From Myxococcota bacterium (GTDB lineage Bacteria; Myxococcota_A; UBA9160; UBA6930), in the NCBI GenBank assembly GCA_965223415.1, contig OZ245002.1:5248001-5312000 (forward strand): a stretch of 64,000 bases of DNA. Reading direction: 5' to 3'. Within the stretch, counting starts at the first letter, position 1. Each line of letters starts with the position of its first letter. The position numbers were made by a program, and so were the translations under genes. The notes beneath the pieces are model-generated. The model made no database searches and was not told the DNA's origin. It saw only the letters and a program-made list of their open reading frames with translations. This document shows, piece by piece, positions 29,651 to 49,707 of this stretch.

Positions 29651-31201
29651 TCAGATGCCACGGGGGGCGTCGGGCTCGCGGTGGGCCTTGTGGCCTTCGA
29701 GGCGGTTGATGGCGTTCACGTAGGCGCGGCCGCTGGCGACGATGATGTCGGTATGGGCGCCGTGGCCGATCACCCGGCGTCCGTCCTCGGTGATGGTGAC
29801 GGTCACCTCGCCCTGGGCGTCCATGCCGCCGGTGATCGCCTTCACCTGGTACTGGAGCAGCTCGGCCTTCGTGTCCGTGAGCTCGGTGATGGCCTTGAAG
29901 ACCGCGTCCACCGGGCCGTCGCCCTGGGCGGTGGCCTTGCGGGCCTCGCCGTCGACGATCAGCTCCACCGTGGCGTTGGGCGTAGCGAAGGTGCCGCTCT
30001 GGATCACCAGGTTGCCGAGCTGGAAGCGGCCGTCGTCGATCGTGACCGAATCGGCGACGATGGCCTCGAGATCCTCGTTGTAGATGGTCTTCTTCTTGTC
30101 GGCCAGGTCCTTGAAGCGCCGGAAGGCCTTCTGGAACTCCTCGTCGGCGAGCTGGTAGCCCAGCTCCCCGAGCCGCTCCCGGAACGCGTGGCGCCCCGAG
30201 TGCTTCCCCAGCACCAGCTCGTTGGAGGGCCGGCCGATCGACTGGGGCGTCATGATCTCGTAGGTGATCGCCGCCTTCAGAACGCCGTCCTGGTGGATGC
30301 CCGCCTCGTGGGCGAAGGCGTTGTCGCCGACGATCGCCTTGTTGGGCTGCACCGGGATGCCGATGATGGACGAGAGCAAGCGGCTCGTCGGGTAGATCTC
30401 GGTCGTGCGGATCCCCGTGTCGAGCCCGTCGAAGGCGTCCTTGCGCACCTTCAGCGCCATCACCACCTCTTCCATGGCGGTGTTGCCGGCCCGCTCGCCG
30501 ATGCCGTTCACCGTGCACTCCACCTGACGGGCGCCCGCTTGGATGGCCGCCAGGCTGTTCGCCGTGGCCAGCCCCAGATCGTTGTGGCAGTGCAGACTGA
30601 ACACGACGTTCTCGCTGCCCGGGACGTGCTCGCGCAGGTAGCGGATCAGCTCGTGGTACTCGACCGGCGTGGTGTAGCCCACCGTGTCCGGCACGTTCAG
30701 GGTCGTCGCGCCGGCCTTCACCGCACAGCCGAACACCTGGACGAGATAGTCCCAGTCCGAGCGCGTGGCATCCTCGGCCGAGAACTCCACGTCGTCCGTG
30801 TACCGGAGGGCCTGGCGCACGGCCCGGTCCACCTCCTCCAGCACCTGCTCCCGGCCCATCTTGAGCTTGTGCTCCAGATGGATGTCGCTGGTCGCGATGA
30901 AGGTGTGGATGCGCGGGCGCCGCGCCTTCTCGAGGGCCTCGCCGGCGCGGGCCACGTCCGCCTCGGCGGTGCGGGCGAGGCTGCAGACCGAGGTCTGCTC
31001 CAACGCCTCCGCGATCGCCCGCACGGACTGGAAATCGCCCTCGCTGGCGATCGCGAAGCCCGCCTCGATGATGTCGACGCCCAGGCGCTCGAGCTGGCGG
31101 GCGAGGGTCACCTTCTCGTTCAGGTTCATGCTGCAGCCCGGCGCCTGCTCGCCGTCGCGCAGCGTGGTGTCGAAGATCCGGATTCGTTTGTCGTCGTTCA
31201 C
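29651..31201 (-). CDS. leuA: 2-isopropylmalate synthase
   Basis: IFDTTLRDGEQAPG, HCHNDLG, GIGERAGN, AHEAGIHQDG; GTG start. Confidence 0.97.
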   Translation of the reverse strand: MNDDKRIRIFDTTLRDGEQAPGCSMNLNEKVTLARQLERLGVDIIEAGFAIASEGDFQSVRAIAEALEQTSVCSLARTAEADVARAGEALEKARRPRIHTFIATSDIHLEHKLKMGREQVLEEVDRAVRQALRYTDDVEFSAEDATRSDWDYLVQVFGCAVKAGATTLNVPDTVGYTTPVEYHELIRYLREHVPGSENVVFSLHCHNDLGLATANSLAAIQAGARQVECTVNGIGERAGNTAMEEVVMALKVRKDAFDGLDTGIRTTEIYPTSRLLSSIIGIPVQPNKAIVGDNAFAHEAGIHQDGVLKAAITYEIMTPQSIGRPSNELVLGKHSGRHAFRERLGELGYQLADEEFQKAFRRFKDLADKKKTIYNEDLEAIVADSVTIDDGRFQLGNLVIQSGTFATPNATVELIVDGEARKATAQGDGPVDAVFKAITELTDTKAELLQYQVKAITGGMDAQGEVTVTITEDGRRVIGHGAHTDIIVASGRAYVNAINRLEGHKAHREPDAPRGI

Positions 31202-31239
31202 GAGGAGATCCCTCCTGAAGGCGGCTTGTCGTCGTTCAT
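31198..31239 (-). CDS. putative 13-aa bridging mini-ORF MNDDKPPSGGISS
   Basis: GAGGAG RBS; ATG overlaps the pssA TGA and its TGA overlaps the leuA GTG; copies the leuA start (13-bp direct repeat). Confidence 0.45.
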   Translation of the reverse strand: MNDDKPPSGGISS

Positions 31240-32048
31240 GCCGACTCCTCCGGCTCCGCGGGCGGGATCTCCTCGAGGGCGCGCCCGGTCCGCCAGCGCC
31301 AGAGCCACTCGATCGGGCCCGAAGCCACATAGGCAATCCCGACCAGGAAGAAGGTGACCGACGGCTTGGAGAGGATCACCGCCAGGGCCAGCACCATCAG
31401 CACTGTCGTCCCGTAGGAGCCATTGACCCGCAGGTCCTTGAAGCTGCGGTAGGGGACCGGGCTCACCATGAGCACGCCGAGCAGCGCGATTCCCACGCCG
31501 GCCAGGGGCGCCGGCACGTCGAGGGGCAGCCCGCTCTCGCGCAGGAAACCCGCGAACCACACCGAGGCCAGCACCATCCCCGCGGCGGAAGGCGTGGCGA
31601 GGCCCTCGAAGCGCCCGCGGTATCTCTCCGGCGTCACGTTGAAGCGCGCGAGGCGCAGCGCCGCGCAGGCGGCGTAGAGGAAAGCCAGCACCCAGCCGGT
31701 CCAGCCGAGCTGCTGGAGCGCGCCGGCCTGGTAGGCGAGCATCGCCGGCGCCACCCCGAAGGAGACCGTGTCGGCGATGGAGTCGTATTCGGCGCCGAAG
31801 CGGCTGGTGGCCCTGGCCATCCGCGCGACCCGCCCGTCGAGCACGTCGAAGATCCAGGCGATGAAGATGGCGAGGGCGGCCCGATCGAGATCCCCCCGAG
31901 CGGCGAGCGTGATCGACCAGAAGCCCGCCGCCAGGTTGCCGGTGGTAAAGAGCTGGGGGAGCAGCGCGACGCCGCGGTGGGGCTCACTCGCCCCCCGGCG
32001 ACGGCGGCGGCGGCGGCGGCGTCGGACCGGAACCTCGGGCTCGCTCAT
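31236..32048 (-). CDS. pssA: CDP-diacylglycerol--serine O-phosphatidyltransferase
   Basis: LPQLFTTGNL, DVLDGRVAR...SRFGAEYDSIADTVSFG, ALRLARFN. Confidence 0.95.
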   Translation of the reverse strand: MSEPEVPVRRRRRRRRRRGASEPHRGVALLPQLFTTGNLAAGFWSITLAARGDLDRAALAIFIAWIFDVLDGRVARMARATSRFGAEYDSIADTVSFGVAPAMLAYQAGALQQLGWTGWVLAFLYAACAALRLARFNVTPERYRGRFEGLATPSAAGMVLASVWFAGFLRESGLPLDVPAPLAGVGIALLGVLMVSPVPYRSFKDLRVNGSYGTTVLMVLALAVILSKPSVTFFLVGIAYVASGPIEWLWRWRTGRALEEIPPAEPEESA

Positions 32049-32731
32049 GCGCCTTCCCCCTCGTAGGCCAGCTCGGCGATCACCGTGCTGCCGCCCCGCA
32101 CCCGCGCGCCCCGCTCCACCCGCGTCACGCTGCTGAGGGGCAGCACGACGTCCGTGCGGGAGCCGAAGCGGATCAGTCCGTAGCGTACGCCCCGCTCGAG
32201 CCACTCGCCGATCTCGGGCTGGCAGAGGATGCGCCGGGCGATCAGGCCGGTGATCTGCACCACGCCAACCCGCCGGCCGTCGGCCATCTCCAGGGTCATG
32301 GCGCAGCGGACGTTGCGGGTCTCTGCGTCCCGGTTGAAGGCCGCCAGGTAGGCATCGCCGGACCGCTCCAGGGAGACGACCCGGCCGGCCACCGGCGCAC
32401 GGTTCACGTGAACGTTGAAGACCGAGAGGAAGATGCCGATGCGCAAGGCCTTTTCGCCGCCCGGCGTTTCGATCTCCCCGACCTCGAGGACGCGCCCGTC
32501 GGCGGGTGCCACGACCCGGTGCTCGCCCTCCGGGATGTCCCGGCCCGGGTTCCGGAAGAAGGCGGCGACGAAGAGCCCCAGGCCCCCGAACAGCCCCGCC
32601 ACGAGCGCTGAGCCCGCGCCCCAGGCGAAGCCCGAGATCAGGAAGAGCGGGATCGCGAAGCGGTAGACGTCCGGCGCGAACCAGGCGGTCAGTCGCTCGT
32701 CGAAGCGCTGCGGCTCTGGCTGCGTCGTCAC
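32045..32731 (-). CDS. psd: phosphatidylserine decarboxylase (short type)
   Basis: FFRNP, APADG, IFLSVFNVHVNRAP, QITGLIARRI, self-cleavage motif RFGSRTD. Confidence 0.95.
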   Translation of the reverse strand: MTTQPEPQRFDERLTAWFAPDVYRFAIPLFLISGFAWGAGSALVAGLFGGLGLFVAAFFRNPGRDIPEGEHRVVAPADGRVLEVGEIETPGGEKALRIGIFLSVFNVHVNRAPVAGRVVSLERSGDAYLAAFNRDAETRNVRCAMTLEMADGRRVGVVQITGLIARRILCQPEIGEWLERGVRYGLIRFGSRTDVVLPLSSVTRVERGARVRGGSTVIAELAYEGEGA

Positions 32732-32732
32732 G

Positions 32733-33755
<1,023 letters not shown>

Positions 33756-33880
33756 GGGGGTGGGTTCTCCGTGGGGGCGCAGCCGGGTGGAAGGGGCTCC
33801 GCCTACGCTCTCGTGCGTCCCGCCGGCCTTCCGCCTCCGGAACGACGCGCTTACGGGTCCTGGGCCGCGCCGAAGGGGCG

Positions 33881-33909
33881 AGGCTACGAAAGCCCCGGAG
33901 GGGTGTCAA
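33881..33909 (-). promoter_or_regulatory. sigma70 promoter of the ilvC-leu operon
   Basis: TTGACA-17 nt-TAGCCT on the minus strand. Confidence 0.75.
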
Positions 33910-33935
33910 AACCGGCCTCGGAGCCAGCCCCCTGG

Positions 33936-34703
33936 TCAGACGAGGGCCTGTCCGGTGCGCTTCGCCTCGGCCTCGGCCCTGCGCAGGTAGCGGGGCAGGA
34001 GCTCGGCCGCGGACACCGCGTGGCCCGCGACAAAAGCCGCCAGGCCCAGCTCCGCGACCCGCGCGGCCCGCGCCACCACGCCGGGCAGGAGCCGCAGCGA
34101 GGGGAGGCCCGCCTCGGCCAGCCTCGACGCAGCCGGGCCCGCGTCCTCACCGACCACGATCGTCGTGTCCGCCGGGAGACGTGCCGCCAGCACCTCCGGA
34201 TCGTAGACGCTCTCCTCCACCAGCGGCTCGCCCAGGGCGTCCGCACCGGACCAGGCGCCTGCGTACAGCTCGCCGCGGCGGGCGTCGAGCAGGGCGGCCA
34301 CCGGGCCCGGCGCACCGCGGGCGGCCCGGGCCAGGGCCGCCAGGCTCGACACCGCCACGACCGGCGGGCCGCCGCCCAGGGCGAGGCCCTTGGCGGTGGC
34401 GATGCCGATGCGCAGGCCCGTGAAGGAGCCGGGCCCGGCCGAGACCGCGATGGCGTCCAGGTCGTCCGGCGTGGCGCCCGCCTCGCCGAGCACCGCGTCG
34501 ATCGTCGGCAGCAGCCGCTCCGAGTGCACCCGGGGGCCCTCGGTCGCCACCTCCGCCACGAGCCGCGGCCCGTCGGCGAGCGTCACGCCCATCACCCGCG
34601 TCGACGTCTCGATCGCGAGCAGCAAAGGGCCCTCACCGCGGGGCGGGGGGCGGTTCGAGCGGCCCGCCTCGGTGCGATGCCGCGGCCGGCCGCGCTCGGC
34701 CAT
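33936..34703 (-). CDS. tsaB: tRNA t6A biosynthesis protein TsaB
   Basis: LAIETST, HSERLLP, GPGSFTGLRIG, DARRGELY, PRYLR; exact start uncertain. Confidence 0.93.
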   Translation of the reverse strand: MAERGRPRHRTEAGRSNRPPPRGEGPLLLAIETSTRVMGVTLADGPRLVAEVATEGPRVHSERLLPTIDAVLGEAGATPDDLDAIAVSAGPGSFTGLRIGIATAKGLALGGGPPVVAVSSLAALARAARGAPGPVAALLDARRGELYAGAWSGADALGEPLVEESVYDPEVLAARLPADTTIVVGEDAGPAASRLAEAGLPSLRLLPGVVARAARVAELGLAAFVAGHAVSAAELLPRYLRRAEAEAKRTGQALV

Positions 34704-34706
34704 CGG

Positions 34707-36398
34707 CTAGAGCCCGCGCAGGAAGTCGAAGAAGGTGGACCAGTTGCGCGTGATGTCGTTCCAGAAGGCGAAGCCCATCAGCGCCACGAGCAGCACCAGG
34801 CCCACCTGCTGGACGAGCTCGCGGGTGCGCAGCGAGAGCGGCCCGCGCTTCACGCCCTCGACCAGGAAGATCAGCGCCTGGCCGCCGTCGAGGATCGGGA
34901 TCGGCAGCAGGTTCAGGATGCCGAGGTTGATGCTGATCAGCATCAGCAGCTGGAGGTAGTGGTCCCAGCCCGCTTGGAAGGCCGAGTGGCTCTGCTTGGC
35001 GATCTCGATCGGTCCACCGATGGCCTTGCGGGAGATCTCGCCGGTCACGAGCTTGCGCAGCCCCTTCAGGAAGATCGACGTCACCTCGTAGGTCATCGCC
35101 ACCGCCCGGGGGATCGAGCGGAGCGGATTGCGCAGCTGCTCCTCCTTCACCGCGCCGGGCAGCGCCGCGTTCGCTCCCTGGATGCCGATCAGGTACTCGT
35201 CGCGATCGAGGCCCTCGATCTGGGAGGGGCGCGCCTCGGGCTCGATCGCCGCACGGCGGATCTTCCCGGCGCGGGCGAACTCGATCGCGAGGCTGCGCCC
35301 GCCGCTGCCGAGCACGGTCTCCTGGAAGGTGAGGAAGCTCCCGATCGGCTGGCCGTCGACCGAGAGGATCAGGTCGCCGGCCTGGAGGCCGGCGCGAGCC
35401 GCGGGCAGCTCCGGCCGCACCGCCGCCACCAGCACGACGGCGGGCACCACGCCCAGCGCCTCGGTCCCGCCTCCCGGAACGCGGAGGTCGACCGTGGCCT
35501 CCTCGGCGTCGGGGCCCGGGCCCTTCGCGCGGGCCACCCGGATCGGCACGGCGTCGATCCCGGCCCGAGCTGCCAGCGCGCGGGCGAAGCCGGCCCAGTC
35601 TTCCACCTCCACGTCCCCGACCTGCACGACGCGATCGCCAGCCCGGAGGCCCGCCCGCTCCGCCGGCGTATCGGGCCCCGCCAGCCCGAGCAGCGCCTTC
35701 TGCCGGCGGTGCTGGACGCCGAGCCATCCGATCTCCTTGTCCTCGCGGAAGACCCGGTCGATGCCGGGCCGGGTCTCGATCGGGACGTCCGCCTGGAACG
35801 GGTCCGTGCCCGCGCGCTCGACGTCGAGCCGCACCACCTCGCCGGGGTGGGCGCGCACGTGGTCGTCGAGATCGTCCCACCAGGCCAGGGGCTCGCCGTT
35901 CAGCCCCACGATGCGGTCGCCGGGCTCGAGGCCCGCCCGCGCCGCCGGCGAGGCGGGCTCCACGGTCCCGATCACGCCGGCGGCCCGGTCGATGCCGACC
36001 CAGAGCGTGCCCATCAGCAGGAGCACGGGCAGCACCAGGTTCATCACCGGGCCGGCGAGCACGATCGCGAGCTTCTTCCACACCGGCTGGGCCGGGAGGC
36101 TGCGGGCCGGATCCCCCTGGGCCTCGGGGCTCTCCTCGTCGCCCGGGTTCTCGCCGAGCATCTTCACGAAGCCGCCCAGCGGGATCCACGCCACTACGTA
36201 CTCGGTGCCGCTGCGCGTCCACTGCATGCGGAAGCGCCCGATGCCGATCGGCGGCCCGAACCCGATCGAGAACTTGAGCACGCGCACGCCGCTGAGCTTG
36301 GCCACGATGAAGTGGCCCCACTCGTGCACGGTGATCAGCACGCCGAGCATGAGGACGAAGGCGAACAGGCCTTCGATGCCAGTGGCGATCTGGCTCAC
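34707..36398 (-). CDS. rseP: RIP metalloprotease RseP with three PDZ domains
   Basis: HEWGH, FSIGFG, IPLGGFVKM, NLLPIPILDGG; three PAxRAGL..GD repeats. Confidence 0.95.
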   Translation of the reverse strand: MSQIATGIEGLFAFVLMLGVLITVHEWGHFIVAKLSGVRVLKFSIGFGPPIGIGRFRMQWTRSGTEYVVAWIPLGGFVKMLGENPGDEESPEAQGDPARSLPAQPVWKKLAIVLAGPVMNLVLPVLLLMGTLWVGIDRAAGVIGTVEPASPAARAGLEPGDRIVGLNGEPLAWWDDLDDHVRAHPGEVVRLDVERAGTDPFQADVPIETRPGIDRVFREDKEIGWLGVQHRRQKALLGLAGPDTPAERAGLRAGDRVVQVGDVEVEDWAGFARALAARAGIDAVPIRVARAKGPGPDAEEATVDLRVPGGGTEALGVVPAVVLVAAVRPELPAARAGLQAGDLILSVDGQPIGSFLTFQETVLGSGGRSLAIEFARAGKIRRAAIEPEARPSQIEGLDRDEYLIGIQGANAALPGAVKEEQLRNPLRSIPRAVAMTYEVTSIFLKGLRKLVTGEISRKAIGGPIEIAKQSHSAFQAGWDHYLQLLMLISINLGILNLLPIPILDGGQALIFLVEGVKRGPLSLRTRELVQQVGLVLLVALMGFAFWNDITRNWSTFFDFLRGL

Positions 36399-37573
36399 GG
36401 CTGCGTCTCCTCCAGCGCGGCCCGCGCCCGATCGCGGGCCCAGGCGTCGGCGGCCAAGACGTCGGCGAGACGCTCGACCGCCTCGCCCCGATGATCGGCC
36501 AGCCAGGCGTCGAGCACGAGGCCGCCCGTCCGGGCGATGTCGGGGAACCGCAGGCCCCCCTCCAGGAAGGCGGCCACCGCCACCTCGTTGGCCGCGTTCA
36601 GCACGGCCGGAGCGGCCTCGCCCCCCGCCAGGGCCCGGAACGCCTGCTCGAGGCACGGGAAGCGCTTCGTGTCCGGGGTCTCGAAGTCGAGGCGTCCGGC
36701 GGCGGCCAGGTCGAGACGCGGCGTCGAGACCGGCAGGCGCTCGGGCCAGGAGAGCGCCAGGGCGATGGGCCCGCGCATGTCCGGCATGCCGAGCTGGGCC
36801 AGGACCGAGCCGTCAACGAACTCGACGAGGGAGTGCACGATCGACTGGGGATGCACCACGACCCGGATGCGTTCGGGCGGCACGTCGAAGAGCCAGCGGG
36901 CCTCCACCACCTCCAGGCCCTTGTTCATCAGGCTGGCGGAATCGATGGTGATCTTCGGGCCCATGTCCCAGTTGGGGTGATCGAGGGCCTGCTCCACCGT
37001 GGCGGCGGCGATCTCCGGGGCGCTCCAGGTGCGGAACGGGCCGCCGGACGCGGTGAGGATCAGGGCGTCGACGTCCTGGGGACGCTGGCCCGCGAGGGCC
37101 TGGAAGATGGCGCTGTGCTCGCTGTCCACGGGCAGGAGCTCGACGCCGGCGCGCTCCACCTCGCGGCGCACGAGGGCGCCGGCCATCACCATCACCTCCT
37201 TGTTGGCGAGGGCGACGTCACGGCCGGCGCGGATGGCGGCGAGGGTGGGCTCGAGGCCGACGGCGCCGACCAGGCCGGCGACCACCAGGTCTGCCTCGTG
37301 CTGGGCGACGGCGACCAGGCCCGCGGGCCCGACGCCGATCTCGGGCGCGGGAACCCCGGCAGCCCGGAGACGCTCGCGCAGCTCGCCGGCGCCGGCCTCC
37401 TCGGCCACGGCGACCCGCCCGGGTCGGACCCGCTGCACCTGCTCGGCCAGGGCCTCGACGTTGCGCCCGGCCCCCAGCGCCGTCACCTGGAAGCGGTCCG
37501 GGAACTCGGCGGCCACCGAGAGGGTCTGCTCGCCGATGCTCCCGGTGCTGCCGAGCACCGCGAGCCGCTTCAC
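36395..37573 (-). CDS. dxr: 1-deoxy-D-xylulose-5-phosphate reductoisomerase
   Basis: LGSTGSIG, LANKE, PVDSEHSAIFQ, HPNWDMGPKITIDSA. Confidence 0.98.
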   Translation of the reverse strand: MKRLAVLGSTGSIGEQTLSVAAEFPDRFQVTALGAGRNVEALAEQVQRVRPGRVAVAEEAGAGELRERLRAAGVPAPEIGVGPAGLVAVAQHEADLVVAGLVGAVGLEPTLAAIRAGRDVALANKEVMVMAGALVRREVERAGVELLPVDSEHSAIFQALAGQRPQDVDALILTASGGPFRTWSAPEIAAATVEQALDHPNWDMGPKITIDSASLMNKGLEVVEARWLFDVPPERIRVVVHPQSIVHSLVEFVDGSVLAQLGMPDMRGPIALALSWPERLPVSTPRLDLAAAGRLDFETPDTKRFPCLEQAFRALAGGEAAPAVLNAANEVAVAAFLEGGLRFPDIARTGGLVLDAWLADHRGEAVERLADVLAADAWARDRARAALEETQP

Positions 37574-37608
37574 GAACGCGCTCCGCGGGGAGCGGCGAAC
37601 CACCTCAC
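37570..37608 (-). CDS. putative 12-aa bridging mini-ORF (V/M)RWFAAPRGARS
   Basis: GTG overlaps the uppS TGA and TGA overlaps the dxr GTG; first 15 nt match the dxr start at 11/15. Confidence 0.35.
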   Translation of the reverse strand: MRWFAAPRGARS

Positions 37609-38345
37609 GATTCCTCGCGGACCTGCGCGCTCGTCTGGCCGAAGCGCCGCTCCCGCCCCTGGAAATCGGCGATGGCGGCCTCGAGCTGCTCGCGGCCGAA
37701 GTCCGGCCACATGCAGGCGGTGGTGTGGATCTCGGCGTAGGCGATCTGCCAGAGCAGGAAGTTCGAGACGCGCTGCTCGTCGCCGGTGCGGATCAAGAGG
37801 TCCACGTCGGGCAGGTCCGGCAGGTCGAGGTGGGCGGCGAAGGTCTTCTCGTCGAGACCGTCCGGATCGATGCGACCCGGCTCGTGCTCGCGCAGCAGGC
37901 GACGGGCCGCGTCCACGATCTCGGCCCGGCCCCCGTAGGACAGGGCGAAGACGAGCTGCAGCCCCGTGCCGTCCCGGGTGCGCTGCTTGGCGTTCTCGAG
38001 GGTGCGGCGCACGTTCGGCGGCAGCCGCTCCATCCGCCCGATGGTGCGGATGCGCGCGCCGCGCCGGATGACCTCGGGCAGGTCGAGCTCGAAGTACTCC
38101 TCCGGCAGGCGCATCAGCAGGTCCACTTCCTGCTTCGGCCGGTTCCAGTTCTCGGAGGAGAAGGCGTAGAGCGTCAGGTAGCCCACGCCCAGGTCGTCCG
38201 CCGCGCGGACCACCTTGCGCACGGCCTCGAGCCCGGCCCGGTGGCCCTCGGTACGCGGAAGCCCCTGCCGCTCGGCCCAGCGGCCGTTGCCGTCCATGAT
38301 GACGGCGACGTGATGCGGGATCCTGGGGCTGCGCGGCTCGGCCAT
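37605..38345 (-). CDS. uppS: undecaprenyl diphosphate synthase
   Basis: HVAVIMDGNGRWA, YAFSSENWNRP, SYGGR, RVSNFLLWQIAYAE. Confidence 0.97.
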   Translation of the reverse strand: MAEPRSPRIPHHVAVIMDGNGRWAERQGLPRTEGHRAGLEAVRKVVRAADDLGVGYLTLYAFSSENWNRPKQEVDLLMRLPEEYFELDLPEVIRRGARIRTIGRMERLPPNVRRTLENAKQRTRDGTGLQLVFALSYGGRAEIVDAARRLLREHEPGRIDPDGLDEKTFAAHLDLPDLPDVDLLIRTGDEQRVSNFLLWQIAYAEIHTTACMWPDFGREQLEAAIADFQGRERRFGQTSAQVREES

Positions 38346-38363
38346 GGGGTGGGTGCTCCGGGC

Positions 38364-38933
38364 TCAGACCTGGAGGATCTCCTCCTCCTTCTCCTGGGTC
38401 ATGGTGTCGATCTTGCCGATGAACTGGTCGGTCAGGTCCTGAACCGTCTTCTCGGCGCGGCGTCGATCGTCGGCGGGGACGCTGCCCTCCCCCTCCAGGT
38501 CCTTGAGCATCGAGACCGCGCTGCGGCGGGCCTCGCGCACGCCGATCTTGTGCTCCTCGGCGGTCTTCTTGATCTGCTTCACGAGTTCCTTGCGACGTTC
38601 CTCGGTAAGTGGCGGAATTGGCAAGCGAATCACCTTGCCATCGTTACTCGGCGTGAGCCCCAGGTCCGCGGCCTGGATGGCCCGCTCGACGTCTCCCAGC
38701 GAGCCCTTGTCGAAGGGCGAGACGACGATCAGCCGCGGATCTGGAGCCGAGAGCGTCGCCAGCTGGTTCAGCGGCGTGGGCGTGCCGTAGTAGTCCACCT
38801 GGACACCCTCCAGCAGCGCCGGGTTCGCCCGGCCGGTGCGGACCTTCTGGAGCTCGGCGCCGAGGCTGCGGACGGCCCGGTCCATGTCGCCCTTGGCCTC
38901 GTCCAGCACGAGGGTCACTTCTTCGTCCGCCAT
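38364..38933 (-). CDS. frr: ribosome recycling factor
   Basis: RTGRANP, YYGTPTPL, PPLTEERRKELVK. Confidence 0.98.
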   Translation of the reverse strand: MADEEVTLVLDEAKGDMDRAVRSLGAELQKVRTGRANPALLEGVQVDYYGTPTPLNQLATLSAPDPRLIVVSPFDKGSLGDVERAIQAADLGLTPSNDGKVIRLPIPPLTEERRKELVKQIKKTAEEHKIGVREARRSAVSMLKDLEGEGSVPADDRRRAEKTVQDLTDQFIGKIDTMTQEKEEEILQV

Positions 38934-38949
38934 GCCGCGCTCTCCTCTC

Positions 38950-39672
38950 CTACCGAGATCCGTCCGAGATCACCGTTCCGATGGTCTCGCCCGCCACGAC
39001 CTTCTGGATGTTGCCGGGGGCGGTCATGTCGAAGACCACGATCGGGACCGAGTTCTCCTTGCACAGGGCGATGGCCGCCTGGTCCATGAAGCCGAGCTGG
39101 CGCTGGATCACCTCGTCGAAGCTGAGCTGCTCGAAGCGCTCGGCCTTCGGGTCCTTCTCGGGATCGGCGGCGTACACGCCGTCGACCTTGGTGGCCTTGA
39201 GCAGCACGGCGGCGTGGACCTCCGCCGCGCGGAGCGCCGCCGCCGTGTCGGTGGTGAAGTAGGGGTTGCCCGTGCCGCCGGCGAAGATCACGATGCGGCC
39301 CTTCTCCAGGTGACGCATCGCGCGCCGTCGGATGTAGGGCTCGGCCATCTCCTGGATCTCGAGGGCGGACAGCACCCGCGTATCGAGGCCCAGGTGCTCG
39401 AGGGCGTCCTGGAGGGCCACGCCGTTCATGATGCTCGCCATCATGCCCATGTAGTCGGCGGTGGAGCGATCCATGCCCTCACTCGCTGCCGTCACGCCGC
39501 GGATGATGTTGCCGCCACCGATCACGATCCCGATCTGGGTGTCGAGGGCGTGGACGTCGCGGATCTCCTCGGCCAGGCCGCGCAGGACGGCGGGCTGGAT
39601 GCCGAAGCCGCTCTCTCCGGCGAGCACCTCACCGGAGAGCTTGAGCAGGATCCGCGGGTAGGCGGCGTTCAT
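38950..39672 (-). CDS. pyrH: UMP kinase
   Basis: [27 protein letters not shown]. Confidence 0.98.
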
Positions 39673-39707
39673 TCCTTGGCACCCTCTCCCGGATCGAGCC
39701 GGGTCAC
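39669..39707 (-). CDS. putative 12-aa bridging mini-ORF (V/M)[11 protein letters not shown]
   Basis: GTG overlaps the tsf TGA and TGA overlaps the pyrH ATG; its end GEGAKE* echoes the tsf end GESPTE*. Confidence 0.35.
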
Positions 39708-40573
39708 TCCGTCGGGCTCTCTCCCAGCTTGAAGCGTACGAAACCGGAGACCTTGATGGGGCTCCCCTGGGCGTCGCCGGCCTCCTTCACCAGGGCCTGG
39801 ACGCTCTGGTCCGGATCCTTCACGAAGGCCTGCTCGAGCAGGCAGACCTCGCTGTAGTACTTCCGGATCCGGCCCTCCACGATCTTCTCGATCACCTGCG
39901 GGGGCTTGCCGTCCTGCTCGGCCTGGCGGCGGAAGAGCTCGGCCTCCCGGTCCAGGAGGTCCTGGGAGACCCCGTCCCGGTCGACCGCCACGGGGCTCGG
40001 GTCGGCGGCGGCCACGTGCATGGCCAGGTCTTTGGCGAGGGCGGCCACCGGGTCGCCCGGGGCGTCGGTCTCGAGGGCCACGAGCACGCCGAGCTTGCCG
40101 CCCGCGTGGATGTAGCCTCCGACCTGGCCGGAGCCGACGGCCAGCCGGGCCGAGCGCTTCAGCTGGACGTTCTCGCCCAGGGTGCCGACGGCGGCGCCGA
40201 TCCGATCGCCGATCTTCTCTCCGTCGAGGGGGACGTCGGCCAGGGCTTCGCTGCCGGCGGCGTCCGGGTTCTCCGCGGCGGCGCCGGCGATCGCCGTGGC
40301 CAGGGCCTGGAAGTCGTCGGTCTTGGCGACGAAGTCGGTCTCGCAGCCGAGCTCCACCAGGCCGGCGACGTTGCCGGCGAGGGCCATGGCGATCGTGCCC
40401 TCCGAGGTCTCCCGGCCCGCGCGCTTGACGGCCTTGGCCAGGCCCTTCTCGCGCAGCAGCTCGATGGCCTTGTCGACATCGCCGTCGGCCTCGGCCAGGG
40501 CCTTCTTGCAGTCCATCATCCCGGCTCCGGTGCGATCCCGGAGCCCCTTCACGTCACTGGCGGAAACGGCCAC
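39704..40573 (-). CDS. tsf: elongation factor Ts
   Basis: [33 protein letters not shown] start. Confidence 0.98.
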
Positions 40574-40686
40574 TGGGGTCCTCTCCTCGATCTTGGTCGG
40601 CCCGTTGGGGCCCGGGACCGCCGGTCGGACGGGCCCTTCGGGTGGGAGCGGCCGGCGGGCGGCCGCACGTGGGTTGGGCGGGCCGG

Positions 40687-41763
40687 CTAGGCGTCCGCCT
40701 TGGGTTCGTCGGCGGCCTTGGCCTTGGCCTCGCCCCCCTCGGCGGGCGCGGCGGGCGCCGCCGGAGCAGCGGGAGCCGTCGGAGCGGCCTCGGTCTCGGC
40801 CGGAGCCGGGGCCGGGGCCTCCTCGCGGCGAGGGCGACCCATCGCCGAGTGGGCGCCGCCGGCCTGGCGGCCGCGGCGGCCTCCGGCTGGCTGCTGCTTG
40901 ATCTCCACAACGCGGCGTCCCGGAGTCGCCTCGGGCTGGGCCTCGGCACCCCGGGTCGGCTCGTCGTGAACCACCCGCTCGTTGAAGAGCTCGGCGCCCT
41001 CGAGGCAGGCGTCGGCGACCAGCTCGCAGTAGAGCTCGATCGCCCGCACGGCGTCGTCGTTGGCCGGCACCACGAAGTCGACCCCCTGCGGATCGCAATT
41101 CGTGTCGACCACCGCGACGATCGGGATCCCCAGGCGCCGGGCCTCCGAGATCGCGATGTGCTCCTTGTTGACGTCGATCACGAACATCGCGTCGGGCAGG
41201 CGGCCCATCTCGCGGATGCCGTCGAGGGACTTGCGGTACTTCGTGACCGAGCGGTTGAGACGCGAGAGCTCCTTCTTCGAGAGCTCGCCCACCTTCTCCT
41301 CGTCGGCCAGGATCTCGAGCTGCTCCTTGAAGTGCTCGATGGACTTCTTGACCGTGCGGAAGTTGGTGAGCATGCCGCCGAGCCAGCGGTTGTTCACGTA
41401 GAACTGCTGGCTTCGCTCGGCCGCACCCTTCACGGCCGGGCCTGCCTGTCGTTTGGTGCCGACCAGCAGCACCTTGCCGCCCTGGGCCACCGTCTCCCGG
41501 AGGAACTCGAGGGCACCGACCAGGTGCGGGGCGGTCTGATCGAGGTCGATGATGTGGATGCCGCCGCGCTCGCCGAAGATGAAGGGCTTCATCTTCGGGT
41601 TCCAACGGCGGGTCTGGTGGCCGAAGTGCGCACCTGCTTCCAGCAGGGAGCGGACGTTCGCCGTACGCTTCTCGCGCTCCTCGGCCGGGGCCGCGGGCTC
41701 GGCAGCGGCCGGCGGGGCGGCGACCGGGGCCTGGACGGACGGATCCGTCGGCGTCTCGGACAT
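40687..41763 (-). CDS. rpsB: 30S ribosomal protein S2 with long N- and C-terminal extensions
   Basis: LLEAGAHFGHQTRRWNPKM, RWLGGMLTNF, DTNCDP, PANDDA. Confidence 0.98.
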   Translation of the reverse strand: MSETPTDPSVQAPVAAPPAAAEPAAPAEEREKRTANVRSLLEAGAHFGHQTRRWNPKMKPFIFGERGGIHIIDLDQTAPHLVGALEFLRETVAQGGKVLLVGTKRQAGPAVKGAAERSQQFYVNNRWLGGMLTNFRTVKKSIEHFKEQLEILADEEKVGELSKKELSRLNRSVTKYRKSLDGIREMGRLPDAMFVIDVNKEHIAISEARRLGIPIVAVVDTNCDPQGVDFVVPANDDAVRAIELYCELVADACLEGAELFNERVVHDEPTRGAEAQPEATPGRRVVEIKQQPAGGRRGRQAGGAHSAMGRPRREEAPAPAPAETEAAPTAPAAPAAPAAPAEGGEAKAKAADEPKADA

Positions 41764-41865
41764 TCGGGTCTCCTTCGCGGTTGGTCCTCCGCCCCGGGCC
41801 GTGTCCTCCCCACCGCCGGCCGCAGCCGGCGGACCGCTGGGGCAGCCCGGAACGTGTGAAGTCGC
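41764..41865 (-). ncRNA. rpsB leader (t44/S2 autoregulatory leader-like)
   Basis: CACAC at the 5' end and GGAGG..AACC before the RBS, as in rpsB leaders; internal CCGCCGGC stem. Confidence 0.55.
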
Positions 41866-41888
41866 GAAGAGTTAGCAGACTCCGGAAG

Positions 41889-41961
41889 GTGAGACAAAGG
41901 GACGTTCCTTTCTGTCTCACGGCGATGCCGTGAGACAGAAAGGAACGTCCCTTTGTCTCAC
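41889..41961. repeat. perfect 73-bp nested palindrome (REP doublet/REPIN-like)
   Basis: 35-bp arm GTGAGACAAAGGGACGTTCCTTTCTGTCTCACGGC, GAT loop, exact reverse complement; each arm is itself palindromic. Confidence 0.9.
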
Positions 41962-43157
41962 GTCGTGTACTCGGCGTTGATGCGGACGTAGTCGTAGGAG
42001 AGGTCGCAGGTCCAGAAGCGGGCCTTGGCCCGGCCGGCGGCGAGGTGGATGCGGATGGCGATCTCGGGGGCACCCATGCGCCGGCCGGCCCGCTCGCGCG
42101 CCGCCTCGCCGGTGCTGGCGCCCCGCCGGAAGACCGGGACGCCGCACAGGTCGACCCGGGTCCGGGCCAGATCGAGCCGCACCTCCCCGGCCCCGACGGT
42201 CTGGAGGATGCGACCCCAGTTGGGGTCGCGGCCGAAGAGCGCGGTCTTGACCAGCATCGAGTTGGCGATGCGGCGGCCGGCGCGCTCCGCCTCGGCCGGG
42301 CTCTGGGCCCCGGTCACCTCGACGGTCACCAGCTTCGTCGCGCCTTCCCCGTCCCGGGCCAGGCCCTGAGCCAGCTCCGTGCAGAGCGTGTGCAGCCCCT
42401 CCTGCAGGCGGCGGCCCGCCGCGCCGCGGGCGCTGCGCAGGGGGCGCGCGCCGCAGGCGCCGTTGGCCAGCAGGATCGCCGTGTCGCTCGTCGACGTCTC
42501 CCCGTCGATCGTGACCCGATTGAAGGTGTCGTCGGCGACCTCGCGCCACATCCCGCGCAGGAGGTCGGGCTCGATGGCAGCGTCGGTCACCGCGAAGGCG
42601 AGCATCGTCGCCATGCGGGGCTCGAGCATCCCGGAGCCCTTCGCCATACCGGCGATGTTGACCATCGCCTCGCCGACCCGCAGGCGCCGATGGGCGACCT
42701 TGGCAACGGTGTCGGTCGTCAGGATCGCCTCCGCCGCTGCCGCCAGGCCGTCCGGATCGAGGGCGGCGGCCAGCTGCGGGATGCCGCGCTCGATCCTCCC
42801 CATCGGAAGCCGCACGCCGATCACCCCCGTGGACGCGGTGAGCACGTCGCGCGCCTCGCAGCCGACGGCCTTCGCGGCCGCCGCCGCCATCACCAACGCG
42901 TCCTGCTCGCCCCGCTCGCCCATCGCCACGTTCGCGTTGCCGGCGTTCGCGACGATGCCCCGCGCCCGGCCCCCGCGCAGGTGGCGCTTCGCGACCACCA
43001 CCGGTGCGCCGGGCACGGTCGAGCGCGTGAAGACGCCGGCGGCGGCGGCTGGACGATCGCTCACGATCAGCGCCAGGTCGCGGGCCCCATCGTCCTTGAT
43101 CCCGCAGTGCACGCCCGCGAACGCGAATCCGCGAACGCGGCGGGCTCGAGCCGCCAT
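41958..43157 (-). CDS. argJ: bifunctional ornithine acetyltransferase/N-acetylglutamate synthase
   Basis: NAGNAN, STGVIG, ILTTDT, KGSGML.PRMATML, DGETSTSD, DGEGATK, TCDLSYDYVRINAEY. Confidence 0.97.
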   Translation of the reverse strand: MAARARRVRGFAFAGVHCGIKDDGARDLALIVSDRPAAAAGVFTRSTVPGAPVVVAKRHLRGGRARGIVANAGNANVAMGERGEQDALVMAAAAAKAVGCEARDVLTASTGVIGVRLPMGRIERGIPQLAAALDPDGLAAAAEAILTTDTVAKVAHRRLRVGEAMVNIAGMAKGSGMLEPRMATMLAFAVTDAAIEPDLLRGMWREVADDTFNRVTIDGETSTSDTAILLANGACGARPLRSARGAAGRRLQEGLHTLCTELAQGLARDGEGATKLVTVEVTGAQSPAEAERAGRRIANSMLVKTALFGRDPNWGRILQTVGAGEVRLDLARTRVDLCGVPVFRRGASTGEAARERAGRRMGAPEIAIRIHLAAGRAKARFWTCDLSYDYVRINAEYTT

Positions 43158-43196
43158 CAGCTCCCTACGCGGCGGGCTCGCGGAGCCATCAGCTCC

Positions 43197-43204
<8 letters not shown>
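43141..43204. repeat. 32-bp tandem duplication of the secA stop/argJ start junction, encoding mini-ORF MAPRARRVGS (43157-43189, -)
   Basis: units match 28/32 and share an exact 18-bp GCCATCAGCTCCCTACGC. Confidence 0.85.
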
Positions 43205-45950
<2,746 letters not shown>

Positions 45951-46024
45951 CAGCGGGCACCCGGCTCCCTCGGGGGTGAGGGACGGAGGTTACGGGAGGG
46001 GTCTTGGGGGGGCCACCCGACGCA

Positions 46025-46357
46025 TCACGGGCGCGCGAACCGCAGGCGAAGCTTGCCGATCTGGATCTCGTCGCCGTCGCCAAGGACGCGGCGTTCGTGC
46101 TTCTTGCCGTTCACCAGCGTGCCGTTCGTGCTCCCCAGGTCTTCGACGAAGAAGCCGTCCGCGGCCACCCAGCCGATGGCGGCGTGGGCCCGGGAGATGG
46201 TCGGCTCGGCCAGGACCGCGTCGGCGGTGCGGCCGCGGCCGATCACGAACCAGTCGCTCTCGACCGGGATCTCGAGGCCTTCGTAGAAGCCGCGCAGGAC
46301 CGTGATCGAAGCGCCCATCGGCATCCGCCCCGCGGCCTGTGCTGCTTCCGTCGCCAT
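46025..46357 (-). CDS. FHA domain protein
   Basis: IGRG, ISRAHA, EDLGSTNGTLVNG, GDEIQIG. Confidence 0.9.
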   Translation of the reverse strand: MATEAAQAAGRMPMGASITVLRGFYEGLEIPVESDWFVIGRGRTADAVLAEPTISRAHAAIGWVAADGFFVEDLGSTNGTLVNGKKHERRVLGDGDEIQIGKLRLRFARP

Positions 46358-46447
46358 CCAGGGATCCCCATGCCCATCGGCCGCGCGGGCCAGCCCCCGG
46401 GGCCTTCATCGGAGTGGACCGGGGCGGACTTGACCGGGGCAGCCCGG

Positions 46448-48181
46448 CTACTGGCGCCGGGTGCGTCGCTTTCCCTTCGGCGAGGCACCCTGAGCGCCCT
46501 TCAGGAGCGACCGCGCGTGCTCCCGAGTCTCGTCCCCCGGCGCCTCCCCGCCGGCCATGCGGGCGACCTCCTCGACCCGCCCCTCGTCGTCCAGGGCCTC
46601 CACCCGGCTCACGGTGCGGCCGCCGGCCTGGCCCTTCGCGACCCGGAAGTGGCTTGCCGGCTGGGCGGCGATCTGGGGCAGGTGGGTGATGCACAGCACC
46701 TGGTGCTCCCGGGCCAGGGAGGCCAGCACGCCACCGACTCGCTCGGCGACCGCGCCGCCGATGCCGGCGTCGACCTCGTCGAACACCAGCACCATGCCCT
46801 GGGTCGTCTCACGCAGCACGTTCTTCAGGGCCAGGAAGATCCGCGAGAGCTCGCCGCCGGACGCGACCTTGCGCAGCGGCCGCGGCGCCTCGCCCTCGTT
46901 GGCGGAGAACAGGATCTCCGCGCTCTCCGCGCCGCTCGGGCCGCACGGCACACCCGGCTCTGGGGGCACCGGCGCGAGCGCCACCTCGACCCGCGCCTGG
47001 GCCAGGGCCAGCTCGCGCACCCCCGTCTCGGCGGCCTCGGCCAGGGCCTTGGCGGCCTTGCGGCGCGCCCGGCTGAGCTTGGCCGCACGCTTGGCGAGCT
47101 TGTCGTGGAGAGCGGCCTGCTCGCTCTCGAGCTTGCCCATGCGCTCGTCGCTGCTGCCGAGGGCCGCGAGCTCCAACGCCGCCTGCTCGCGAAAGGCCAG
47201 GATGTCCTCGACCCGCGCGCCGTACTTGCGCTTCAGCCGCTCGAGGCCCTCGATGCGCTCCTCGACGAAGGCCAGGCGGGCCGGATCCGCGTCGATCCGC
47301 CCCGTGTAGCGCTCGAGGTCCCGGGCCAGGTCGGCGAGCTCCGCGGCCGCCCCCGCCAGGCGCTCGGCGGCCTCGCCCAGCTCCGGATCCAGCTCGGACA
47401 GGGCGGCCAGGGTGCGCTGGGCCTCGGCCAGGCGATCGCCCACCGCTGCCGCCTCGCCACCGGAGGGGTCGCCGGCGAGGGCGGCGACGACACCGCTCGC
47501 CTCGCCGGCCAGGCGTTCCGCGTGCACGAGGCGCCGGTGCTCCGCTTCCAGCTCCGTAGTCTCCGCCGGGTCGAGACCGGCCTCGTCGATCTCCTTCACC
47601 TGGAAGGCGAGGAAGTCCTCGCGCCGGGCCCGCTCCTCGGCCTCGGTGCGCAGGGCCTCGAGCTCGGCCCGCCCGGCCCGCAGCTCGTGCACGCCCTCCT
47701 CCACGGCCCGGCGATCGCCCTGCAAGCCGCCGTGGTGATCGAGCAGGCGTCCCTGGGTCTCGGCCCGCAGCAGCGCCTGGGACGCGTGCTGACTCGACAC
47801 CTCGATGCGTCCCGCGAAGAGCTCGGCGAGCGTCGAGATGGGAACCAGGCGGCCGCCGACCCAGGCCCGCCCCCGCCCGTTGCGTTGGAGGCTGCGCCGT
47901 ACGATCAACGCGCCGTCCTCGTCCTCGAGTCCGCGTTCGGCGAGCGCCTCCGCGAGCTCGGGCTGGCCGCCGATCCCGAAGACCGCCTCGACCACCGCCT
48001 GGTCGGCGCCCTCGCGGATCGCCTCGCGATCGGCCCTGGCCCCGGCCAGCAGCGCGAGCGCGCCCAGCACGATCGACTTGCCGGCACCGGTCTCGCCGGT
48101 GAGCACGTTGAGCCCCGGGCCGAACTCGAGCTCCAGCGCGTCGACCAGGGCGAGCTGCTCGATGCGAAGCCGCTCGATCAA
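46448..48181 (-). CDS. recN: DNA repair protein RecN
   Basis: LTGETGAGKSI, KVASGGELSR, FDEVDAGIGG, QVLCITHLPQIA; TTG start. Confidence 0.97.
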   Translation of the reverse strand: MIERLRIEQLALVDALELEFGPGLNVLTGETGAGKSIVLGALALLAGARADREAIREGADQAVVEAVFGIGGQPELAEALAERGLEDEDGALIVRRSLQRNGRGRAWVGGRLVPISTLAELFAGRIEVSSQHASQALLRAETQGRLLDHHGGLQGDRRAVEEGVHELRAGRAELEALRTEAEERARREDFLAFQVKEIDEAGLDPAETTELEAEHRRLVHAERLAGEASGVVAALAGDPSGGEAAAVGDRLAEAQRTLAALSELDPELGEAAERLAGAAAELADLARDLERYTGRIDADPARLAFVEERIEGLERLKRKYGARVEDILAFREQAALELAALGSSDERMGKLESEQAALHDKLAKRAAKLSRARRKAAKALAEAAETGVRELALAQARVEVALAPVPPEPGVPCGPSGAESAEILFSANEGEAPRPLRKVASGGELSRIFLALKNVLRETTQGMVLVFDEVDAGIGGAVAERVGGVLASLAREHQVLCITHLPQIAAQPASHFRVAKGQAGGRTVSRVEALDDEGRVEEVARMAGGEAPGDETREHARSLLKGAQGASPKGKRRTRRQ

Positions 48182-48204
48182 GCCTCCCCCCGTTCTTCGC
48201 TCAA
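48178..48204 (-). CDS. putative 8-aa bridging mini-ORF (L/M)SEERGEA
   Basis: TTG overlaps the nadK TGA and TGA overlaps the recN TTG; AGGCTTGA(G/T)CGA repeated at a 23-bp period. Confidence 0.35.
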   Translation of the reverse strand: MSEERGEA

Positions 48205-49070
48205 GCCTTGCCCCAGCCGAGCTTGGTTCGCAGCACGTCGAAGCGGGAGCGGAAGGGCGAGACGACGAAGTGGGCCGGGTGCTCGGAGCCCTGCACCTCG
48301 ACCCGGTCGTCGGTCTCCAGGGTCACCGCCACCTGGCCGTCGAGGGTGAGATTGGCGGTGCCGTCGCGGGGGAAGACGCGGATCTCGAGACGGGAGGTGT
48401 CCGGCACCACCACCGGGCGCTGGGACAGGCCGTGTGGACAGATCGGCGTGAGCACCAGGGCGCGGGAGCCGGGCATCAGGATGGGCCCGCCCGCGGAGAG
48501 GGTGTAGGCGGTGGAGCCGGTCGGTGTGGCGACGATCAGGCCGTCGCCGCGGTAGGTCGTCACCGGCGCGCCGTCGGTCCAGGTCTCGAGGTCGATCATC
48601 CGCGAGAGATCGCTGCGGTTGATGACGGCGTCGTTCAGGGCGAGCGATTGGATCAGCACGCGCTCGCCGCGGAGGGCCCGCACCTGGAGCCGGGTGCGGG
48701 GCACGACGTCGAAGTCGCCGGCCAGCACCCGCCCGAGTACCGCATCGAGCTCTTCCGGCGCGACTTCGGCGAGGAAGCCCAGCGCGCCCTGGTTCACGCC
48801 GAGGATGGGCACGGGGCGCGAGCCGGCCTCCCGCGCCACGGCCAGGAGGGTGCCGTCGCCGCCGACGACGATCAGCAGGTCCGCCTTCTCCGCGAGGGCG
48901 GCTCGCGCCACACCCTCGCCGCCCAGCAGCTCCGCGGCCTGGGGATCGAGCAGGGCCTCGACGCCCCGGGCCGCGAGCTCCGCGAGGAGGTGCCCAGCCA
49001 CCTCCCCGGCATCGCGCGCCGCCGGTTTCAGGCACACGCCGACCGTCCGCACCGGAGAGCGGGCCGTCAT
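48201..49070 (-). CDS. nadK: NAD(+) kinase
   Basis: GGDGTLL, GVNQGALGFL, ALND, DGLIVATPTGSTAYTLSAGGP. Confidence 0.97.
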   Translation of the reverse strand: MTARSPVRTVGVCLKPAARDAGEVAGHLLAELAARGVEALLDPQAAELLGGEGVARAALAEKADLLIVVGGDGTLLAVAREAGSRPVPILGVNQGALGFLAEVAPEELDAVLGRVLAGDFDVVPRTRLQVRALRGERVLIQSLALNDAVINRSDLSRMIDLETWTDGAPVTTYRGDGLIVATPTGSTAYTLSAGGPILMPGSRALVLTPICPHGLSQRPVVVPDTSRLEIRVFPRDGTANLTLDGQVAVTLETDDRVEVQGSEHPAHFVVSPFRSRFDVLRTKLGWGKA

Positions 49071-49245
49071 CGGCTCCCTCCCGACACGGCTTCCATCCCG
49101 CGACTGCCCGACGCCACCGTCACCCGGCCTCCTGCCCGTTCGTCAGCTTCCCAAGAGTAGGGAACCCGGGCGTCGGCCCGCCTCGGCCGACGCCCGCAAT
49201 GCGGCCGACGGAACCGGCCCCGAACGCAACGGGCCGCGGGGGCTC

Positions 49246-49707
49246 CTAGCGGTAGTAGGGCGCGAGCTTGATCAGGGCCGTGCCGACAGGAGTGATCTTG
49301 GCGAAGACCGCCTCCGGGATCAGGGCCCGCCGGCCGTTCTCGGCGGCGTCGTTGCGCAGCAGCTCGATGCGCTTGAAGCGCGGAAGGGTCGCTTCCTTGC
49401 CCTCGCCGTTCGCCAGGCTCGCAGCGAGGCCACGAGAGGCGCTCGCCAGCATGCGCACGTCGTCCTTGGCCCGGTACCAGCTGGCCTGGTTGGCCGGGTC
49501 GAGGTTGTCCGGGAGCTTGGCAATGGCGTCGTCCAGGGCCGCGCAGGCGTCGGCGAGCTCCTGGGCGTAGCTGGTGAGCCGCTCCTGGTTCCAGTTGGCG
49601 ACGGGTTCATCGCCCTGGGCCCAGCCGGCGCCGGCCGCCCCCAGCAGCACGAGGCCCGCACCCAGGGCCAGGACGCTCCGCAGGTGCCTTCGCATTCCGA
49701 TGGGCAT
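49246..49707 (-). CDS. secreted hypothetical alpha-helical protein
   Basis: signal peptide ending AGWA-Q; strong GC3 bias; GGAGGAGG RBS; start uncertain. Confidence 0.7.
   Translation of the reverse strand: MPIGMRRHLRSVLALGAGLVLLGAAGAGWAQGDEPVANWNQERLTSYAQELADACAALDDAIAKLPDNLDPANQASWYRAKDDVRMLASASRGLAASLANGEGKEATLPRFKRIELLRNDAAENGRRALIPEAVFAKITPVGTALIKLAPYYR

Follow-up and report, generated by a model that had tools for sequence, protein, structure and literature searches.

Why do several spacers between genes of core operons hold a tiny open reading frame (ORF) that closes precisely on the next start codon, and how do such spacers arise? This question is raised by a stretch of 64,000 nucleotides (from now on referred to as the window), positions 5,248,001-5,312,000 of a single-contig Myxococcota genome of 5,833,097 bp with 71% guanine plus cytosine (GC) content (G000, the genome under study). 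A preliminary description of the window listed six such mini-ORFs and proposed that duplicated stop/start junctions are retained when they form a relay of termination and re-initiation. This interpretation is supported by three lines of evidence: spacers carrying relays show a genome-wide excess of repeat periods equal to 2 mod 3, tandem repeats show the same excess where a start codon is copied, and relatives carry a single-copy ancestral overlap at orthologous junctions. The spacers are probably scars of frequent short tandem junction duplications that have passed a selective sieve.

All six mini-ORFs are located between, or ahead of, minus-strand genes, and every gene at 31-49 kb of the window is encoded on that strand. 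The mini-ORFs and their periods (38, 35, 35, 32, 23 and 53) were found exactly as first listed:

31198..31239, minus strand: pssA/leuA relay mini-ORF, MNDDKPPSGGISS and stop, 13 amino acids (aa), ATGA to GTGA, period 38
37570..37608, minus strand: uppS/dxr relay mini-ORF, VRWFAAPRGARS and stop, 12 aa, GTGA to GTGA, period 35
39669..39707, minus strand: tsf/pyrH relay mini-ORF, 12 aa, GTGA to ATGA, period 35
43135..43202, minus strand: secA/argJ tandem duplication, 32-bp unit, 2.2 copies, 29/32 identical
43157..43189, minus strand: secA/argJ mini-ORF, MAPRARRVGS and stop, 10 aa, closes via TGATG, period 32
48178..48204, minus strand: nadK/recN relay mini-ORF, LSEERGEA and stop, 8 aa, TTGA to TTGA, period 23
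49067..49123, minus strand: nadK leader upstream ORF (uORF), 18 aa, ends on nadK ATGA, period 53

Four of the six overlap both the upstream stop and the downstream start, while the secA/argJ mini-ORF and the nadK leader uORF overlap at their downstream end only. At pssA/leuA, for example, the mini-ORF begins with an ATG that shares bases with the pssA stop TGA (31236-31238) and ends in a TGA that shares bases with the leuA GTG (31199-31201). The secA/argJ mini-ORF starts 7 nucleotides (nt) past the secA TAG (43197-43199) and its TGA shares an A with the argJ ATG (43155-43157); both this offset and the four upstream overlaps had been described correctly. The nadK leader uORF is found in a 175-nt spacer following the gene at 49246-49707. 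The names pssA, leuA, uppS, dxr, tsf, pyrH, secA, argJ, nadK and recN are upheld by NCBIfam, whose family profiles begin aligning at residues 1-7 of the starts used here, and LeuA shares 72-77% identity with the nearest named records, all from uncultured Myxococcota. For argJ, conservation of VRGFAFAGVHCG in relatives and an ArgJ profile aligning from residue 5 place the start at ATG 43157. An in-frame alternative GTG for dxr at 37603, just past the uppS stop, would lengthen the protein by 10 residues; the start at 37573 agrees better with relatives and with the Dxr profile.

Similarity between the two copies of a junction within G000 is clear at secA/argJ and pssA/leuA, moderate at tsf/pyrH (16/22) and weak at uppS/dxr, nadK/recN and the nadK leader. 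The 32-bp unit at secA/argJ comprises the junction of secA stop, Shine-Dalgarno (SD) sequence and argJ start, and the encoded peptide is a copy of the ArgJ N-terminus MAARARRV. At pssA/leuA, a 13-nt exact repeat spans the first leuA codons and the peptide MNDDK recurs. The statement that every spacer is a recognisable copy thus holds for secA/argJ and pssA/leuA and moderately for tsf/pyrH; relatives supply evidence for uppS/dxr and tsf/pyrH, and at the nadK leader no duplication could be demonstrated. Contigs from four Logan runs (two samples of one study, probably the source of the genome) span all six spacers with zero indels and confirm their sequence, so these spacers are not assembly artefacts. 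The secA/argJ tandem duplication is unchanged in contigs of three runs. No length variant was seen at the six spacers in contigs of the four runs, which lose rare variants during assembly. A further in-frame 12-bp duplication had been suggested at a K+ channel start (52901/52913) and was rejected: these are merely two in-frame ATGs 12 nt apart, and the two 12-mers match at 5/12 positions only.

Phase of junction spacers across the genome

Genes were called genome-wide with a purpose-written caller based on hexamers and ribosome-binding sites, yielding 5290 genes that cover 90% of the genome and 3562 co-directional neighbour pairs. A 4-nt NTGA overlap (-4) is present in 752/3562 of these pairs and a TGATG overlap (-1) in 136/3562. 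Phase was analysed in all co-directional spacers of 12-65 nt, measured from stop to next start (n=1106). With d denoting spacer length, d mod 3 = 1 represents the closing phase and is equivalent to a period of 2 mod 3. The relay class contains spacers in which a start codon overlaps the upstream TGA and a TGA overlaps the downstream start (n=103). Two control classes came from the same caller, namely spacers following an upstream CTGA, where the C before TGA precludes a start codon, and spacers following TAA or TAG stops. The caller puts the argJ start at GTG 43112, where homology backs ATG 43157. The secA/argJ junction was therefore left out of the counts, which are approximate, with controls sharing the same errors.

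The relay class is strongly biased, with 13/69/21 spacers at d mod 3 = 0/1/2, that is, 69/103 in the closing phase (chi-square p=2.5e-12). Both controls are flat (34/37/27 for CTGA and 58/44/38 for TAA/TAG), and the relay class differs from the CTGA control with a Fisher p of 4e-5. The excess of period 2 mod 3 anticipated in the preliminary description is thus borne out, lying far above one third. Adding TGATG-type overlaps brings the count to 79/117 in phase (p=4.6e-14), of which 75 represent open bridging ORFs with overlaps at both ends. All co-directional spacers of 29-40 nt likewise distribute 122/83/68 by phase, the 122 being those of 29, 32, 35 or 38 nt, a periodicity that follows from the length rule. 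Spacers with a start on the stop and no A after that start show an excess at d=2 (28/43/65 for d mod 3 = 0/1/2), which we attribute to alternative starts or duplications in frame and not to a second phenomenon. Strict relays are enriched in the window, amounting to 4/20 spacers of 12-65 nt compared with 65/1106 genome-wide (p=0.027).

Two technical sources of the bias were rejected. A gene-caller artefact does not fit, as the caller is blind to other frames, the CTGA and TAA/TAG classes are flat and starts defined by orthology agree. Frameshifts introduced by sequencing or assembly would be needed by the hundreds, whereas coding sequence makes up 90% of the genome (5290 genes); diverged copies and the concurrence of independent contigs further rule out this source.

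The same bias is found in G031, a genome that belongs to the same order as G000 but to a different family. A 1.2-Mb sample with 70% GC contains a relay class of 3/14/3 by d mod 3 (p=0.0009), controls of 9/9/6 and 10/14/10, and about the same relay density as G000. Relay spacers are therefore not specific to the lineage of G000.

Tandem duplication and the ancestral state of the junctions

The origin of the relays was analysed by comparing the 15+15-nt flanks of both TGAs within each relay and between permuted relays. Mean flank identities are 6.5/6.0 within relays versus 4.9/4.7 for permuted pairs, and at least 18 of 30 flank positions match in 8/69 relays, where 0.15 would be expected from permuted pairs. 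Relay periods in G000 range from 8 to 86 nt with a peak at 29-38 (37/82) and none at 41-53.

A scan of the genome for tandem repeats (at least 85% identity, period 18-120) identified 150 loci. The 71 repeats within genes are all 0 mod 3. By period 0/1/2 mod 3, repeats containing only a stop distribute 7/9/8 and intergenic ones 13/13/11, while those holding a called start distribute 3/2/13. Among repeats at co-directional junctions, the distribution is 2/2/10 where the start codon is duplicated versus 6/12/12 where it is not. Mutation thus supplies repeats without a mod-3 bias, which arises only where a start is copied. Whatever their location class, repeats are most often 31-38 bp in size, with none above 45 bp even though periods up to 120 were scanned, and the peak of relay periods coincides with this mode. 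In the G031 sample, no tandem repeat exceeds 41 bp.

Some junctions carry more than two copies. Triple-NTGA chains are formed by arrays of 38 bp × 3.4, 38 × 2.9, 23 × 3.3 and 26 × 3, and a TGATG-type array measures 35 × 3.2. Arrays of 2.9-3.4 copies thus occur elsewhere in the genome. The 38-bp arrays near genome positions 2732022 (3.4 copies) and 3107298 (2.9 copies) are perfect or near-perfect, each with an SD and ATGA; they give chains of two 13-codon relay ORFs and are candidates for copy-number variation. At genome position 5628586 (minus strand), an array precedes rpmJ, a gene missed by the caller, and each encoded MKVRASEGRGS stops 1 nt before the next ATG. Minisatellites are found at 4526340 (38 bp × 18) and 318089 (36 bp × 14), in uncalled or intergenic regions. 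Two dispersed multi-copy elements, one at 1070359, 1259516, 1857779, 2361312, 4408943, 5390717 and 5425891 and the other at 1855509, 2075126 and further positions, contain 23-bp and 25-bp terminal internal repeats. Identical ORFs, about 1.7 kb and 0.76 kb long, adjoin them, and both elements are probably insertion sequences.

Orthologous junctions in five genomes of the same genus (G001-G005), with about 77% DNA identity to G000, reveal the ancestral state. The tsf/pyrH junction is a single-copy ATGA overlap in 5/5 relatives, and G000 therefore carries a 35-nt insertion. Three relatives (G003, G004 and G005) retain a lone GTGA overlap at uppS/dxr; in G001 this junction holds a different relay of 17 nt, and in G002 it holds an in-frame insert of 24 nt. 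The pssA/leuA junction is single-copy in 3/5 relatives (a -1 overlap in G003, G004 and G005), with a different 29-nt relay in G001. Single-copy ancestral junctions, which had been proposed as a check of the duplication model, were thus found at all three sites, and secA/argJ is a single-copy short spacer (TAG, 6 nt, ATG) in 3/4 relatives (G003, G004 and G005). In G003, the 5' end of leuA contains a separate 24-bp in-frame tandem duplication in its first codons (DDKHIRIF repeated), which exemplifies a tolerated 0-mod-3 outcome.

The remaining two mini-ORFs of the window are shared with relatives. Relays at nadK/recN measure 23 nt in G000, 32 nt in G001 and 41 nt in G003, G004 and G005, all 2 mod 3, and the copies of the 41-nt relay are plainly duplicated. 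The nadK leader uORF in G003, G004 and G005 has the same SD and start position, comprises 8 codons and ends on the nadK GTGA; the difference between 8 and 18 codons amounts to 30 nt and is hence in phase.

The survey was widened to 65 junctions from five regions, where the starts in relatives were assigned by aligning them with the N-terminus from G000. An orthologue was available for 56/65 junctions, and at 23 junctions two or more of the six genomes show a -1 overlap. Nineteen distinct expansions were identified at those 23 junctions: 16 have lengths of 2 mod 3, including 15 strict relays, against two expansions of 0 mod 3 and one of 1 mod 3 (binomial p=7e-6 for 16/19, kin not being fully independent). 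The sole 1-mod-3 expansion, in G001, consists of two mini-ORFs chained by TGATG. Among 12 G000 relays with orthologues, relatives mostly still overlap for 8, the relay is shared for 2, and 1 each is chance-like or mixed. Four species have the 20-nt relay of genome position 119845, its SD-like core being the sole conserved part.

A proposed selective sieve and its alternatives

We hypothesize that stop/start junctions, most of them ancestrally 4-nt NTGA overlaps, would duplicate in tandem with units of 14-41 bp, mostly 29-38. Such a duplication would place the SD and start codon of the first copy on the upstream stop, while the real start would lie in the copy that follows. With a copy length of 2 mod 3, the first start would read in frame into the TGA of the second NTGA (or TGATG); a ribosome initiating or re-initiating at the first copy would translate 5-13 codons, stop on the real start and re-initiate there, so that coupling would be kept. 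A 0-mod-3 copy would give the downstream gene an N-terminal extension, and a 1-mod-3 copy would send ribosomes into its +2 frame and over the real start, with out-of-phase alleles expected to be purged. Read from gene starts, the +1 frame stays open for a median of 11 codons and the +2 frame for 287. Because the +2 frame stays open for this long in a GC-rich genome, 1-mod-3 copies would cause long read-through.

The duplications, the single-copy ancestry, the phase bias with its controls and the openness of the frames are observed directly; from them we infer that first-copy starts are used, that ribosomes are handed over by termination-reinitiation and that selection removes the other phases. 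Were the first copy silent, its phase would be of no consequence, so that the bias itself suggests use of the first-copy starts by ribosomes. Of the mini-ORF starts, 45% have an SD ahead of them (59% at periods of 29-38), compared with 17-20% at the same position in other spacers and 62% of true overlap starts. In Escherichia coli and Haloferax reporters, a spacer of about 20 nt nearly abolishes coupling by termination-reinitiation (PMC10666635). A filler ORF would therefore be the sole way for a 30-nt insert to keep coupling.

Several points weigh against this reading. Clear copy similarity is seen in only about 8 to 25 of 69 relays, and for the remaining ones we infer a duplication origin from length and motifs. 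Closure on the start is automatic for any 2-mod-3 copy of an NTGA and so provides no separate evidence of relay function. Gene starts come from a simple caller of our own that is wrong at argJ, making the counts approximate, and the relatives are kin, so that expansion events are not fully independent. As for individual loci, the 37-bp, 3.1-copy ATGA-junction array before rpmJ (L36) is 1 mod 3, and the 62-nt relay at genome position 5054651 is chance-like, its relatives having CTGA or TAG spacers. Two 1-mod-3 cases exist in relatives, yet their mini-ORFs stop early or chain through TGATG.

The strongest competing explanation, to which we assign an appreciably lower probability, is that the spacers are harmless scars. 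Here, the sieve merely removes long out-of-frame translation or detrimental N-terminal extensions, the mini-ORFs bring no benefit, and ribosomes reach the downstream gene through its own SD whether or not the mini-ORF is translated. Consistent with this, an SD is retained at downstream starts as at other genes (52% vs 49-51%), most relays of G000 are young, as judged from the 8/12 with orthologues whose relatives mostly still overlap, and exact closure would be a by-product of copying NTGA. Two suggestive observations argue for more than a scar. The phase survives later changes in length, as seen at nadK/recN (23/32/41 nt) and in the nadK leader (8 vs 18 codons). Further, first-copy starts have not decayed to CTGA, the closing-phase excess in the CTGA class being small (37 vs 34 and 27).

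It is rather unlikely that the mini-ORFs are adaptive regulators or nascent microproteins which tune product ratios or encode useful peptides. The relay at genome position 119845, the nadK/recN relay and the nadK leader uORF are indeed conserved across species about 23% diverged in DNA. However, the nadK/recN peptides of three species share only their first four residues, which are copied from RecN, the peptide sequence at 119845 is not conserved beside its SD-like core, and most relays are species-specific. The earlier suggestion that such mini-ORFs seed microproteins is thus not borne out, as peptides are not conserved where the relay is.

Insertion of a mobile family resembling mycobacterial interspersed repetitive units (MIRUs), that is, dispersed small repeats inserting at start codons and bringing their own overlapping ORF, is very improbable. 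Descriptions of MIRUs present the same architecture, with ORF ends overlapping both operon neighbours (PMC12548453; PMC3184786), and multi-copy arrays are present here as well (38 bp × 3.4, 38 × 2.9, 23 × 3.3, 35 × 3.2). Against this, the inserted copy matches the first codons of the local gene and the last codons of the gene upstream. All-against-all comparison and genome-wide blastn of 38 spacers (26-41 nt) found no family: the spacers share just 8-16-nt junction motifs and 31/38 are unique in the genome, leading us to reject a dispersed family.

Chance combined with ascertainment, whereby short ORFs are open everywhere at 71% GC, NTGA is common and closed examples were picked, has almost no probability left: the preliminary description itself admitted a biased search and background relays do occur (about 21 per phase expected among upstream-start spacers, from the CTGA class), but 69 relays in the closing phase stand against 13 and 21 with flat controls, and the bias is replicated in G031 and, with orthology-defined starts, by the expansions in five relatives.

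Comparison with known systems

If the sieve acts as proposed, the length rule would represent a footprint of ribosome behaviour in genome sequence, implying that ribosomes use start codons left on stops and that reading across a start out of frame carries a cost. For annotation, it cautions against treating such spacers as empty or as mis-called starts. The natural variants at uppS/dxr (overlap, 17-, 24- and 35-nt) allow the reach of termination-reinitiation to be measured. More tentatively, and with somewhat less than even confidence, relay mini-ORFs could constitute a general, selection-maintained intercistronic class in GC-rich prokaryotes that obeys a '2 mod 3' length law, with operons depending on a diverged filler. 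If so, start, phase and SD of the filler would be conserved while the peptide drifts, sequence alone would reveal gene pairs that need translational coupling and MIRUs would be one lineage's amplified version of relay mini-ORFs.

Termination-reinitiation at ATGA and TGATG overlaps is an established form of coupling, and the same motifs are found at the ends of the mini-ORFs (PMC6728339; PMC10666635). In that published work, coupling joins two real genes, whereas here a non-conserved filler ORF of 5-18 codons chains two overlaps across a spacer otherwise too long for coupling. Ribosome-delivering upstream ORFs and synthetic bicistronic designs likewise use a short ORF with its own SD and an irrelevant peptide (PMC12548453). 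Those designs are 5' leaders or engineered parts, while the relays described here arise spontaneously between genes by junction duplication and, unlike them, obey a genome-wide length rule.

The closest precedent is provided by MIRUs. Their units fall into classes of 77, 62 and 53 bp, likewise 2 mod 3. The MIRU ORF has 4-nt overlaps with the upstream stop and the downstream start, presumably preserving coupling, and about 40-50 dispersed copies of 40-100 bp are described as one family related in sequence and possibly mobile (PMC12548453; PMC3184786). In a literature search, no report of a mod-3 rule for local junction duplications came up, MIRU descriptions being closest. The remark that this is not known as a systematic feature therefore holds, as far as that search goes, for the rule itself, but its outline has a precedent in MIRUs (PMC12548453; PMC3184786). 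Both systems consist of short repeats between co-directional operon genes, contain an ORF overlapping both neighbours and form tandem arrays. They differ in that each spacer here copies its own junction, with no family consensus in the blastn comparison of 38 spacers, in unit size (mostly 29-38 bp as opposed to the 40-100 bp given for MIRUs) and in host, here Myxococcota. A local, non-mobile origin is thereby suggested for a MIRU-like architecture. Compared with MIRUs, the new features are local derivation, shorter units and a measurable genome-wide length rule.

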